Virus record (IMG/VR): IMGVR_UViG_3300027749_000039
Location: 1-64,000 of that record
Source: a virus
Length of the DNA stretch: 64,000 bases
Strand: one strand, 5' to 3'
Position numbers and translations under genes: made by a program. Under the pieces are notes generated by a model. That model searched no databases and was not told where the DNA came from. It saw nothing but the letters and a program-made list of their open reading frames with translations. Shown here in pieces: positions 53,059 through 57,055 of the stretch; the stretch's first letter is position 1; the number at the start of each line of letters is the position of its first letter.

Positions 53059-53946
53059 TTAGATTCTTGTTCCACAAGAAGGACAGAATTTTTCTGTTCC
53101 CTTTAATTTGTTTCCACAATCAGAACAAAAGTTCTTCTTTAATTCCGATGTTTCTACTGGTTTCTTGCTATTTGGAAGTAATTGATAAGAAACTTTACTG
53201 ACACAGTATGCTTCAAAATCCATTTCAATTGCTTCAAATTTTTGTTGTGATTTATCACCTTTTTCTATTCTACCAGTCTCAGTTGTATCAGAAAGTGTTT
53301 TATTCTTAGATTTAGACCTAAGAATATCTGAACTTTTTGATTGCTCCGAAGTATTAGAATAAGATCTAATAGTGTTTGATGTATTTGATATGTTTGATGT
53401 ATAAAAACAATTACTACTTCCTAATGACATATTATTAATACTTACTTGAGAAGTAGTAATTAATGGATTTGTCCCAAATGTTATATTTCCACCATTCGTA
53501 GGTATAATAGTGTTATCAACTGTCCAAGTAATATTTGGATTACTATTTAGATTAACATAAGTATAACTGTTGGCGATAAATTTTGGTGTAGTTCTTTCTT
53601 TAAAGAAAGAAACTTCTACAAATCCATTATTAGCAACGGCATTTAATGCTTCTGTTGAGTTTTCTACGTCATAGGTTTTAAATAAAAATTTCTTTTTATC
53701 ATCTAAAAAGCAATCTAAATAAAATCTTTGTCCTGGTCTTAAAATTAAACCATTTTCTGAAACTTTTTTACCATTGATTTTAATTTCAGCTAATACTGAA
53801 TCTTGAAGTGGATTAAAGAGTTCGATTATAAACTCTTGGTTATTGTCTAAATAGACTTTATTATTAAGATATATTTTTTTACGTCCTCTATCTTTTGAGT
53901 TGACGATCCATGCGGAAGGATTTCCGTTGTTTGATGTGTAATACAT
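53059..53946 (-). CDS. Conserved phage protein with C-terminal double zinc ribbon
   Basis: IELFNP...ING...GLILRPGQRFYL; FCSDCG...FCPSCG. Confidence 0.7.
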   Translation of the reverse strand: MYYTSNNGNPSAWIVNSKDRGRKKIYLNNKVYLDNNQEFIIELFNPLQDSVLAEIKINGKKVSENGLILRPGQRFYLDCFLDDKKKFLFKTYDVENSTEALNAVANNGFVEVSFFKERTTPKFIANSYTYVNLNSNPNITWTVDNTIIPTNGGNITFGTNPLITTSQVSINNMSLGSSNCFYTSNISNTSNTIRSYSNTSEQSKSSDILRSKSKNKTLSDTTETGRIEKGDKSQQKFEAIEMDFEAYCVSKVSYQLLPNSKKPVETSELKKNFCSDCGNKLKGTEKFCPSCGTRI

Positions 53947-54411: not shown

Positions 54412-54484
54412 GAGGGTATAGCTCAGTTGGAAGAGCATCTGACTCTAAATCAGAGAGTCGTGGGTTCGAGCCCCACTATCCTCT
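54412..54484 (+). tRNA. Amber suppressor tRNA (anticodon CUA)
   Basis: Acceptor GAGGGTA/TATCCTC, D-stem GCTC/GAGC, anticodon arm TCTGA-CTCTAAA-TCAGA (CTA at 54445-54447), T-arm GTGGG-TTCGAGC-CCCAC, N73=U, CCA not encoded. Confidence 0.92.
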
Positions 54485-54491
54485 CTTAAAT

Positions 54492-54573
54492 GCGGTCTGA
54501 GTTTTAAATCTATCCTGGCGGAAGAGCATGGCACTAAACTATGTAACATTGGGTTCGAATCCTACAGATCGCG
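54492..54573 (+). tRNA. Atypical/degenerate tRNA-like element, probable anticodon CUA
   Basis: Acceptor GCGGTCT/AGATCGC, T-loop TTCGAAT, anticodon arm CATGG-CACTAAA-CTATG (A33 instead of U33), oversized D region. Confidence 0.55.
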
Positions 54574-54587
54574 CTAAAAATTAAAAT

Positions 54588-54812
54588 ATGATATCAATAA
54601 TATTATTAGCACTTACTATATGGTGTGGTTATAAGCTTGTTACAAGCGAGAATAAATTACTTTATTCAACATTAGTATTACTTATTGATGGCGCTTGGAT
54701 TGCATATAACTTATATACACATAGTTATATATATGCTGCATTTTGGGTAGTATTACTATTGTTTGATACAAGAACATACCAAAGATATAAAAATGAGCAA
54801 GAAGAAGATTAG
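54588..54812 (+). CDS. Small membrane protein
   Basis: 74 aa, three hydrophobic segments; ends in TAG. Confidence 0.65.
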   Translation: MISIILLALTIWCGYKLVTSENKLLYSTLVLLIDGAWIAYNLYTHSYIYAAFWVVLLLFDTRTYQRYKNEQEED

Positions 54813-55104
54813 AGAAATTTTTAGAAATGATGTCTTAAAAAGAGATAAGAATAAATGCCGCATATGTGGTGATTCTAAATCTAATCTAGATGCTCACCAT
54901 ATTACTGATAGGCATGAAATGCCTAGTGGTGGCTATGTTAAAGAAAATGGTATAACCCTCTGTGATAAAGAGGGTGGATGTCATATGAAAGCAGAACAAT
55001 ATCATATAGGTAATAAAGTTGAAGAAGGATTTATGCCAGATGATTTATATAAATTAATTAATTCAAGCTACGAAATAGCTTATTACGAATCTTTAAATCT
55101 TTAA
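54793..55104 (+). CDS. HNH endonuclease
   Basis: VLKRDKNKCRICG...LDAHHI...ENGITLC...CH; ATG 54793. Confidence 0.85.
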   Translation: MSKKKIREIFRNDVLKRDKNKCRICGDSKSNLDAHHITDRHEMPSGGYVKENGITLCDKEGGCHMKAEQYHIGNKVEEGFMPDDLYKLINSSYEIAYYESLNL

Positions 55105-55273: not shown

Positions 55274-55306
55274 AAAATAAATATATAAAAATAAAAACAA
55301 TTACTT

Positions 55307-55672
55307 ATGTTGTAGAACAAATTTAACGAAACAAAATTAGTGATAATATCTAGACAAGATATGTCATCAGGCTACCAAGTGGTCCAATCAGCACATGCTA
55401 TTGCGGATTTCGCAAGCGAACATCCCGAAACTTTTGAACAATGGAAAAAAGAATCTAATTCCATTATTTGCCTCTCAATCAAAGATGAGGAAACTTTATT
55501 AAAACTTCACGAAAAATTATCAAAGAAAACAGCAAGTTCATCATTTTATGAACCTGATGTTAATGCTTTTACGGCAATTTGTGTCTATGGCACACCTGAA
55601 ATCCGTAAAAGTCTTTCGCATTTGCCATTAGTTTTAAATAAAAAATCAAAAGATGGCGAAACGTGGTCGTGA
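55307..55672 (+). CDS. Pth2-like peptidyl-tRNA hydrolase with in-frame TAG at codon 3
   Basis: ATG TTG TAG AAC AAA TTT AAC GAA ACA AAA TTA GTG in frame with KLVIISRQD...YQVVQSAHA...SIICL...FYEPDV...TAIC...SHLPL. Confidence 0.75.
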
Positions 55673-55690
55673 TAAGTTAATATATACTTT

Positions 55691-56485
55691 ATGTATATAC
55701 GAAATTGTCCATCTTGTGGAAAAGAATTGACCTACACTACTAATTATAGTAAAAATAGGCAAGAAAAACTAAATAAATCTTGTAGAAGCTGTACTACCAA
55801 AAAGGAATATGTTATAAATCCGGATAAAAATAAAGGAGAAGAAAATGGTAGATTTGGAAAATCATTATTAGAAGTAATGAACAACAAATATGGTGAAAAA
55901 AAAGCAGAAATTAATTATAATAATTGGAAAAATAACAAAAATTCTTTTGGGATTAAAGAAAAAAATCCACAATATGGTATTTCCCCATTTAAGAATAATG
56001 GAATGTCATATAAGGGATGGTATAAAGGAATGTTTTTTAGAAGTAGTTTTGAATTGATGTTTATATTTGAAAATTATGATAAAAAAATAATTTCCGCAGA
56101 AACAAAAGAATATAGAGTTAGTTATAATTATTTAGGTAATGAAACACATTATTATCCGGATTTTTATAGCGAAACAAATAATACCATTTACGAAATAAAA
56201 TCTAAAAAATGGTTATTAGATAGTAAAAATCTTCTAAAAATAGAAGCAGGTAAGGAAGAATTTAAAAAAAGAGGAATTAAATATGAGGTATTATGTGAAT
56301 ATGATATGGATATATTTAAAAAATATAATTCTGATTGGCAGAAAATTATTTATGATTTTCTTTATGAATTAGTCATTTATAATGAAGTTAATTTAACAGA
56401 CTTGTCTTTTAAAAAATTAAAATTAAAATTGTTAAAAACAAAAAGGATTACAAAACTAAAAACAATAGAAAATACTATGAAGTAG
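55691..56485 (+). mobile_element. Putative homing endonuclease (zinc ribbon + NUMOD3-like + TnsA-like PD-(D/E)xK)
   Basis: CPSCG...CRSC, GEENGRFGK, NPQYG, FRSSFEL, HYYPDF, IYEIKS; ends at the TAG of the next gene's start. Confidence 0.7.
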
Positions 56486-57055
56486 ATAACATTATCAGCA
56501 TTAAGAGAAGCGATGGAAAGTTGCGAACAAACAAAGGGGGTCTCTACCTTACAACATGGTCTATCCGTTAAAAATTATTTATTTGATTTACTAACTCATT
56601 TAAGAAATGAAACGCCATTAAAATATGAATGGTCATTACCAAAATGGGTAATTGAGAACAAAGAATTTTTATTAGATAATTTATCTGATGATAAAACGCT
56701 ATCATTATATACCGAGTATCATGATTGTGGAAAATGGTCATGTCTTGAAGTTGATGATGACGGCAAAAGACACTTTCCAAATCATGCTGAGAAATCCTAT
56801 GATATTTTTAAACAAACATTTAAAAACCAAATAGCAGCTATATTAGTTAAACATGATATGGATATACATACTTTAAAAGCAGATGGTGTTGAAAACTTCT
56901 GTAAAAATCCATTAGCAATAACATTGTTATTAACTGGACTTGCAGAGATACACTCAAATGCTAGTATATTTGGTGGTATTGATAGCACAAGTTTTAAGAT
57001 TAAATTAAAAAGTATAACACAAAGAGGAAAACAAATTTTAAATATTCTAAAATGA
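56477..57055 (+). CDS. HD-domain hydrolase with in-frame TAG at codon 3
   Basis: ATG AAG TAG ATA ACA TTA TCA GCA TTA AGA GAA GCG ATG... in frame with CEQTKG...QHGLSV, YHDCGK, HFPNHAEKS, HDMDIH, AEIHSN; ATG 56513 is the alternative start. Confidence 0.7.

Follow-up and report, generated by a model that had tools for sequence, protein, structure and literature searches.

The synthesis of two enzymes of the tRNA 3' end is probably gated, in the phage genome described here, by the programmed read-through of an amber codon that follows the start codon of each gene almost immediately and that is decoded by a tRNA(CUA) encoded by the phage itself. The stretch of DNA that was analysed, called the window below, comprises the initial 64 kb of a virus record of 190.6 kb (designated G000 where coordinates of the full record are given) with a G+C content of 27-28%. 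The completeness of this record was estimated by CheckV at about 31% of a genome, so that it represents a fragment of a huge phage. The features on which the argument is built are the following:

54412..54485, + strand: canonical cloverleaf tRNA with the anticodon CUA (amber suppressor), detected by ARAGORN and matched by the Rfam tRNA model (69.1 bits, E 1.5e-14)
54492..54573, + strand: non-canonical tRNA-like RNA with CUA in an anticodon-like loop, recognized by covariation with related elements
55280..55288, + strand: AATATATAA, a promoter-like motif 27 nt 5' of the ATG at 55307, with a function suggested by its recurrence
55307..55675, + strand: gene of Pth2 fold, made of ATG, TTG, TAG (codon 3), 118 codons and a tandem TGA TAA (Pfam PTH2, profile comparison, Foldseek)
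55313..55315, + strand: proposed programmed in-frame amber codon (the gate), with A as the next base; TAG is found at the homologous place in 155 of 162 loci
55691..56485, + strand: TnsA-like ORF (PHROG "endonuclease") between the two gated genes (Pfam Tn7_TnsA-like_N, E 4e-5; phrog_15427)
56477..57055, + strand: HD-domain gene beginning with ATG, AAG, TAG (56483-56485), ATA and encoding a 189-residue protein, with the same N-terminal amber gate

The beginning of the Pth2-like gene had been outlined in a preliminary description, and its elements were all found again, namely AATATATA at 55280-55287, ATG at 55307-55309, TTG at 55310-55312 and TAG at 55313-55315. Behind this TAG, the same frame reads NKFNETKLVIISRQD... 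until the TGA at 55670-55672, with a TAA directly 3' of it. The motif AATATATAA can be observed at a similar spacing before the homologous gene in many loci, and it stands 12-30 nt 5' of many other gene starts in the same phage, which puts the ATG at 55307 in the usual position of a gene start. This motif occurs 34 times on the + strand and 23 times on the - strand of the record (in the window, for example, at 2287, 7141, 13179, 26222, 27443, 31027, 35554, 55280 and 59530) and is probably the main promoter or leader motif of the phage. On the best reading, the ATG at 55307 is the real start of the gene and the full product has 121 residues. The first canonical start 3' of the TAG is the GTG at 55340, coding for V12; a further one in the window is the ATG at 55361. 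This GTG had been placed inside the first beta-strand, and an AlphaFold model (pLDDT 89, built on 37 relatives) bears this out, since strand 1 is formed by residues 10-16. Initiation at the GTG would delete K10 and L11, two residues that are invariant in the family. Truncated products may arise in the window from the starts located past the TAG.

A protein search returned 130 homologs, and the full-length ones start with MLQI[DN]KF.ETKL... When the window's M-L-TAG-N-K-F-N-E-T-K-L is aligned with them, the TAG falls opposite their Q. On the contigs of homolog P0004, this Q proves to be the TAG itself, translated as Q by the gene caller. The homologs therefore do not start at the Val, and the N-terminal extension is kept across the TAG, as the preliminary description had anticipated. 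The gate was scored in 162 loci, comprising 158 from viral and metagenome collections, three cultured-phage records and the window. The nearest in-frame upstream stop is a TAG in 155 of them (124 distinct sequence contexts), 6-15 codons before strand 1. These contexts share 30-86% identity and are related by descent, hence they do not constitute independent trials. Neither TAA nor TGA was found at the gate position among the 155 gated loci, and the main stop codon of these genomes is TAA. The gene itself ends with TAA in 84 contexts, with TGA in 38 and with TAG in two, and the gene bodies contain 739 CAA or CAG codons and no further in-frame TAG. The base 3' of the gate is A in 104 contexts and G in the other 20, a pyrimidine being found in none. 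In E. coli, a purine at this position favors amber suppression, and its invariable presence here fits a selection for efficient suppression. The TAG is followed by ATT in 93 of the 124 contexts, by ATA in five and by GTN in 19; in the window the next codon is AAC, and AAC, ACA, AGC, GAG and ACT are among those seen in other loci.

The region 5' of the gate is constrained in phase and variable in sequence. An ATG is present 1-9 codons before the TAG in 120 of the 124 contexts, most commonly at a distance of two, and 131 of the 133 ATGs located within 30 nt of the TAG on its 5' side are in frame with it, each of the other two frames containing a single one. The most frequent leader peptides (n=121) are MK (41), MNN (15) and ML (14), and forms such as M alone or MKKDLTTL also occur; the last sense codon varies between Lys, Asn, Leu, Thr and Met. 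The fixed fMet-Leu minigene put forward in the preliminary description is therefore not a conserved feature, as the leader runs from one to nine codons with a variable sequence. From the first codon after the TAG, the column entropy by codon position is 0.80/0.42/1.32, and this periodicity is absent upstream. Furthermore, 17 distinct relatives are devoid of any ATG, GTG or TTG 3' of the TAG, and the first start of many others comes at least 17 codons past it, deep in the domain. The coding periodicity beginning right after the TAG, the 17 relatives without a later start and the invariance of K10 and L11 imply that translation must cross the TAG. The gate is not obligatory for the enzyme, since a few relatives are without it (loci L055, L067 and L068, the Lak phages and probably RaK2). 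On the 190.6-kb record, the bare pattern of an ATG, 0-4 codons, a TAG and a purine, with 60 or more open codons behind it, occurs at five places (six overlapping matches), and at 0-5 in shuffled sequences; taken alone it is within chance, and its significance rests on the conservation observed in 155 of the 162 loci.

The gate can be found in cultured phages as well:

Mycobacteriophage Bxz1, gp154: ATG TAG GTN, the codon after the TAG being the annotated start
Mycobacteriophage Myrna, gp84: GTG TAG GTN, the Val codon past the TAG being the annotated start
Tenacibaculum phage pT24: MK-TAG-I
XacN1, ORF364 (HD-Pth2 fusion): MK-TAG-T, with ATG AAG TAG in frame 5' of the annotated start
Xoo-sp13: MKK-TAG-N
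Pectobacterium phage CBB: MAQ-TAG-N
Acinetobacter phage ME3: MT-TAG-I, with a tRNA(CUA) 430 nt upstream
Ralstonia phage RsoM2USA, HD gene: MKS-TAG-I
Huge phage LR745206: MNN-TAG-I

The gene start has been placed past the TAG in every annotated record of these phages. A tRNA(CUA) lies 300 nt downstream of gp154 in Bxz1, where it bears the database label "tRNA-OTHER". In CBB (L191, NC_041878, 286.0-286.9 kb), an internal TAG some 35 codons into the HD gene splits it, in the annotation, into small ORFs.

The identification of the first gated product as a Pth2-like protein, proposed at the outset, has been strengthened by three types of comparison. With the TAG read through, Pfam PTH2 matches residues 10-80 with 36.3 bits for a gathering cut-off of 23. 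Profile comparison retrieves the archaeal Pth2 2zv3 (E 2e-7), and the ten best Foldseek matches of the model are all Pth2 or Bit1 structures (E 3e-7 to 6e-5, TM 0.62-0.73), including 2zv3, 3erj, 1wn2, 1q7s (human Bit1) and 1xty, for which the TM is 0.66-0.73 and the identity only 18-26%. The scores obtained with the NCBIfam equivalog models (32 and 27.5 bits) are far below the respective cut-offs of 126 and 82, which makes the protein a superfamily member and not an equivalog. In profile alignments to 2zv3, 24bt and 1rzw, the Lys in the archaeal G-K motif aligns with a nearly invariant Tyr23 and the Asp in the D-A-G motif with an invariant Glu82, while Gln27, His30 and Thr89 are kept. Work on the S. 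solfataricus Pth2 reportedly assigned catalysis to that Lys and that Asp, together with a Thr. The replacement of this Lys by Tyr makes classical Pth activity uncertain; judged from the residues aligned, it is plausible but not assured. Only two cellular matches were obtained among 185,579 species genomes, both on tiny MAG contigs, and this subfamily is essentially phage-only. PHROGs labels both the Pth2-like and the HD family "unknown function". One of its entries, phrog_14850 (270 positions), combines a truncated Pth2 part (3-74) with an HD part (79-266) and was apparently built from fusion proteins with starts called past the TAG.

The second gated gene encodes an HD protein. Its homologs in 63 loci (50 distinct) start with M, 0-6 codons and a TAG, followed by ATT in 42 of the 50; in the window, the canonical start past the gate is the ATG at 56513. 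The Pfam HD model matches 20 of 23 relatives and not the window's own copy, and the metal-binding residues H27, H82-D83, H103 and D127 are invariant. The best structural match of its model (pLDDT 96) is found with residues 250-447 of 3wfo_A, a class II CCA-adding enzyme (Z 12.7), a region that is also retrieved by profile comparison (E 0.0025). The gated neighbor is thus an HD phosphohydrolase of the CCA-adding-enzyme type. The presence of the same gate on this gene goes against a gate logic specific to peptidyl-tRNA recycling, which the preliminary description had favored. The Pth2-like and HD genes abut or overlap in most relatives (-14 to +12 nt), and 0.4-1.3 kb are inserted between them in others. 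Moreover, 13 loci as well as Tenacibaculum phage pT24 have a Pth2-HD fusion behind a single N-terminal TAG, and XacN1 and Xoo-sp13 have the fusion in reverse order (HD-Pth2) behind ATG, one or two codons and TAG. These fusions argue that the two proteins act together.

The window shows the order tRNAs, HNH, Pth2, TnsA-like and HD, the second element being an HNH endonuclease ORF at 54763-55104. The HNH and TnsA-like ORFs are shared by close relatives and absent from most others, as expected for mobile insertions. The frame of the TnsA-like ORF terminates on the very TAG that gates the HD gene, and suppression of this terminal TAG would join its product to the HD protein. A 295-aa protein with a C-terminal zinc ribbon, encoded on the minus strand at 53059-53946, is found beside the module in the closest relatives only.

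The canonical tRNA(CUA) is carried by the same strand as the Pth2-like gene, 820 nt upstream of it. It has a G1-C72 pair, the discriminator U73 and a variable loop of 5 nt; U73 and G1-C72 are presumably not identity marks of bacterial tRNA-Gln. This tRNA, which had escaped the preliminary description, supports the read-through proposed there and replaces leaky termination by dedicated suppression as its basis. With ARAGORN, a tRNA(CUA) was found on the same strand within 3 kb of the gene in 42 loci, distant homologs included. All five large records examined for lack of an ARAGORN match near the gene have a canonical or odd-shaped CUA tRNA elsewhere. The full record contains 46 tRNA genes, and the other 45 are clustered at G000 129434-172865. 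A derivation of the suppressor from one of the phage's own tRNAs, such as tRNA-Gln, was discarded, as its identity to these 45 is at most 68%. According to ARAGORN, the tRNA at G000 133744-133833 has a four-base anticodon (ctga). A glutamine-tRNA ligase gene (G000 172882-174471, outside the window; positions 1444-3033 of L197) scores 613 bits with TIGR00440 (cut-off 426) and lies directly 3' of three tRNA-Gln genes; it could have a bearing on the residue inserted at the UAG.

The tRNA-like RNA at 54492-54573 is not called a tRNA by Rfam or ARAGORN. It displays an 8-bp acceptor stem (read by eye only), a long connector before a 5-bp D-like stem, a 9-nt anticodon loop containing YUCUAAA and a 4-bp T stem. 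In other loci, 21 related elements are located 13-170 nt 5' of the Pth2-like gene. Applied to the 22 copies, RNAalifold recovers three of these stems (D-like, anticodon and T), and 12 of 14 pairs are backed by compensatory changes. A quadruplet reading of TAGA by the 9-nt loop was discarded, since triplet register is kept from the ATG through the TAG to the frame downstream. In the code-15 Prevotella phage Lak-B5 (L187, MK250024, at 340.1 kb), a tRNA(UUA) is present about 600 nt 5' of a Pth2-like homolog that is not TAG-gated. This tRNA and an upstream M-N-I-TAA-I were considered as a possible co-variation of gate codon and anticodon, which was abandoned since the stretch is not conserved.

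Outside the two gated genes, the record uses the standard code. ORFs of at least 100 codons cover 0.877 of it with code 11, and this fraction rises to 0.900 when TAG is read through and to 0.903 when TGA is; genome-wide recoding was rejected, as read-through of TAG adds no more cover than read-through of TGA. Among 180 long non-overlapping ORFs, 149 stop at TAA, 23 at TGA and eight at TAG. No backup stop indicative of suppression was seen after these eight TAG-ending ORFs. The open stretch that follows them has a median of 45.5 codons versus 6 after TAA, a figure based on n=8 and confounded by overlaps with neighboring genes. Read-through extensions of such ORFs are possible. On the minus strand at G000 185257-190467, two ORFs of 788 and 948 aa share the same frame and are split only by TAG TAT ATG. 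A scan of the 190.6-kb record for ATG, 0-4 codons, TAG and a purine revealed no convincing gated gene beyond the Pth2-like and HD genes. Its remaining matches are one antisense artefact and two weak candidates at G000 134768 and 148367 (L195 and L196), with MR-TAG-I and 84 aa, and MMK-TAG-K and 99 aa, respectively; these two ORFs have no Pfam match and contain an ATG 6-11 codons later, and their gates may be due to chance. An excess of ATGNNNTAGATW in the window (11 copies versus about 4 expected) was likewise set aside, since all copies except that at 56477 lie inside other genes, in other frames. Further TAG-bearing genes may exist elsewhere in the genome, of which the record represents about 31%.

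Read with the standard code, the gene would begin at the GTG at 55340 (or the ATG at 55361), ATG-TTG-TAG would be a very short upstream ORF acting only on initiation, through coupling or occlusion, and the tRNA(CUA) would serve other purposes. This is indeed what annotation suggests: ORF callers pick the GTG at 55340, the database caller reports a 103-residue product from the ATG at 55361, and the GenBank starts of Bxz1, Myrna, pT24, XacN1 and Xoo-sp13 are all past the TAG. A coupling ORF, however, need neither be in frame with the enzyme nor avoid TAA, whereas the mini-ORF always stops with TAG and is always in frame. Furthermore, the residues from the TAG to the GTG at 55340 are conserved as protein, with third-position wobble, K10 and L11 never vary, and 17 distinct relatives have no canonical start to offer past the TAG, which renders this explanation unlikely. 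Initiation at the codon after the TAG itself, with ATT, ATA or GTN as rare starts and ATG-x-TAG as a start-stop element for re-initiation, would agree with the prevalence of these codons at that position (93, 5 and 19 of 124 contexts) and with the annotated starts of Bxz1 and Myrna. It is highly improbable in view of the AAC found there in the window and of the AAC, ACA, AGC, GAG and ACT found elsewhere, GTA and GTT being poor starts in any case; a TAA, moreover, would serve re-initiation as well and yet never occurs, and the linked tRNA(CUA) is left without explanation. A recent nonsense mutation or an assembly error in a dying gene could in principle result from a single C-to-T change turning CAG into TAG. 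This idea, to which practically no weight can be given, is refuted by the conservation data: the same TAG recurs in 124 contexts, in many samples and in cultured phages of three bacterial phyla, and purifying selection acts on the remainder of the gene, which is intact.

The remaining alternative also makes use of read-through. Drop-off at ATG-NNN-TAG would yield dipeptidyl-tRNA and read-through would yield the hydrolase, so that the supply of enzyme would be tied to termination efficiency and to the peptidyl-tRNA load. The lambda bar minigenes are free-standing ATG-NNN-stop units of two or three codons that are toxic via drop-off. Most leaders have this same size of 2-3 codons, and the Pth2 fold of the gated protein provides a thematic link to peptidyl-tRNA hydrolysis. 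ATG-TTG-TAG differs from them in that it is not a free-standing ORF, its stop being in frame with a sequence conserved as coding from the next codon onwards; in that this stop is always TAG; and in that it lies beside a tRNA(CUA). Drop-off explains neither the exclusive use of TAG nor the linked suppressor. The leaders extend from one to nine codons with a variable last sense codon, the same gate is present on an HD phosphohydrolase gene, and the Tyr opposite the G-K Lys makes classical Pth activity uncertain. As the sole explanation, a minigene feedback is thus improbable; it could act on top of suppression, and the read-through reading does not need it.

According to the suppression model preferred here, ribosomes would initiate at the ATG at 55307 and reach the UAG at codon 3. 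Without tRNA(CUA), they would terminate and release a dipeptide, and no enzyme would be made. With the charged phage tRNA(CUA), the UAG would be read as a sense codon and the 121-residue protein would be produced. The reader of the UAG may be the canonical tRNA at 54412-54485, the odd RNA at 54492-54573 or both. The HD gene (ATG at 56477, AAG, TAG) would obey the same rule, and the output of both enzymes would depend on how strongly the suppressor competes with release factor 1. The suppressor tRNA or tRNAs and two enzymes with folds pointing to the tRNA 3' end would make up a conserved and phage-specific module, enzymes of the Pth2 fold being known to hydrolyze the ester bond at A76. With a gate right after the start, termination costs next to nothing, and whatever residue is inserted can be tolerated. 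We infer from this arrangement that the tRNA(CUA) is charged and reads the gate TAG, and the roles of the two enzymes are deduced in the same way. The reason for the gating may be a feedback on the suppressor, the recycling of its peptidyl form or a checkpoint on the tRNA pool.

More tentatively, the trio might regulate itself, as a circuit that controls either UAG decoding or the pool of phage tRNAs, with the odd CUA RNA as its dedicated key; this is a possibility to be held with considerable doubt. In one form of such a circuit, the enzymes could free the suppressor when it is in a peptidyl or aminoacyl form, or act on its 3' end by trimming or repair, and the early UAG could then create a feedback, by analogy with prfB, that holds suppression at a set level. 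In another form, the suppressor could report that the phage tRNA set is mature and charged, the 3'-end enzymes being released only then; they could be used against host tRNA-targeting defences or against host tRNAs.

These genes can be compared with several known systems. As in prfB, the gene of release factor 2, an in-frame stop occurs early and synthesis depends on its decoding; prfB relies on a +1 frameshift and encodes a protein that acts on this same stop, whereas here the frame is unchanged and a reading by a dedicated tRNA is proposed. In comparison with Pth2 (PF01981), the phage family shares the fold, a detectable sequence relation and the core Gln, His and Thr, and it differs by the N-terminal extension that bears the gate and by the Tyr and Glu that replace Lys and Asp. 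Code-15 phages (Lak, crAss-like and others), in which TAG stands for Gln, encode their own suppressor tRNAs, and in-frame stops have been proposed to control the timing of protein synthesis in recoded phages (10.1101/2021.08.26.457843). Neither Pth nor any other hydrolase is mentioned in that preprint. The likeness lies in a phage tRNA(CUA) that overrides UAG in a standard-code host. Those phages have many genes, mainly structural and lysis genes, with many in-frame TAGs, and a low code-11 coding density, whereas a single TAG just past the start of two enzyme genes is kept here across distant phages. In the approximately 31% of the genome that is covered, the tRNA(CUA) was found, and neither widespread in-frame TAGs nor a low code-11 density accompanies it. 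Standard-code jumbo phages of the XacN1 type share the many tRNAs and the one or two tRNA(CUA). Two CUA suppressor tRNAs without an identifiable target were described in XacN1, the authors reading past 18 terminal amber stops (PMC5852040). From its sequence, XacN1 ORF364 is a candidate target of these tRNAs. A literature search outside subscription journals retrieved no published description of an N-terminal amber gate.

The sequences compared indicate that this gate design is common to more than 100 distant phages, several of them grown in the laboratory. It offers a concrete and conserved target for the orphan amber-suppressor tRNAs of standard-code jumbo phages (cf. PMC5852040), and the culture of several carriers makes the gate idea directly testable. 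It also revises the start codons assigned so far to a family of genes that hundreds of annotated phage genomes contain, among them the cluster C mycobacteriophages and the groups of pT24, XacN1, Xoo-sp13, CBB and ME3, and it links a Pth2-fold enzyme and an HD domain of CCA-enzyme type as one functional unit. If true, this gate would be a natural example of a translational switch that is operated by a tRNA and placed right where a gene begins.
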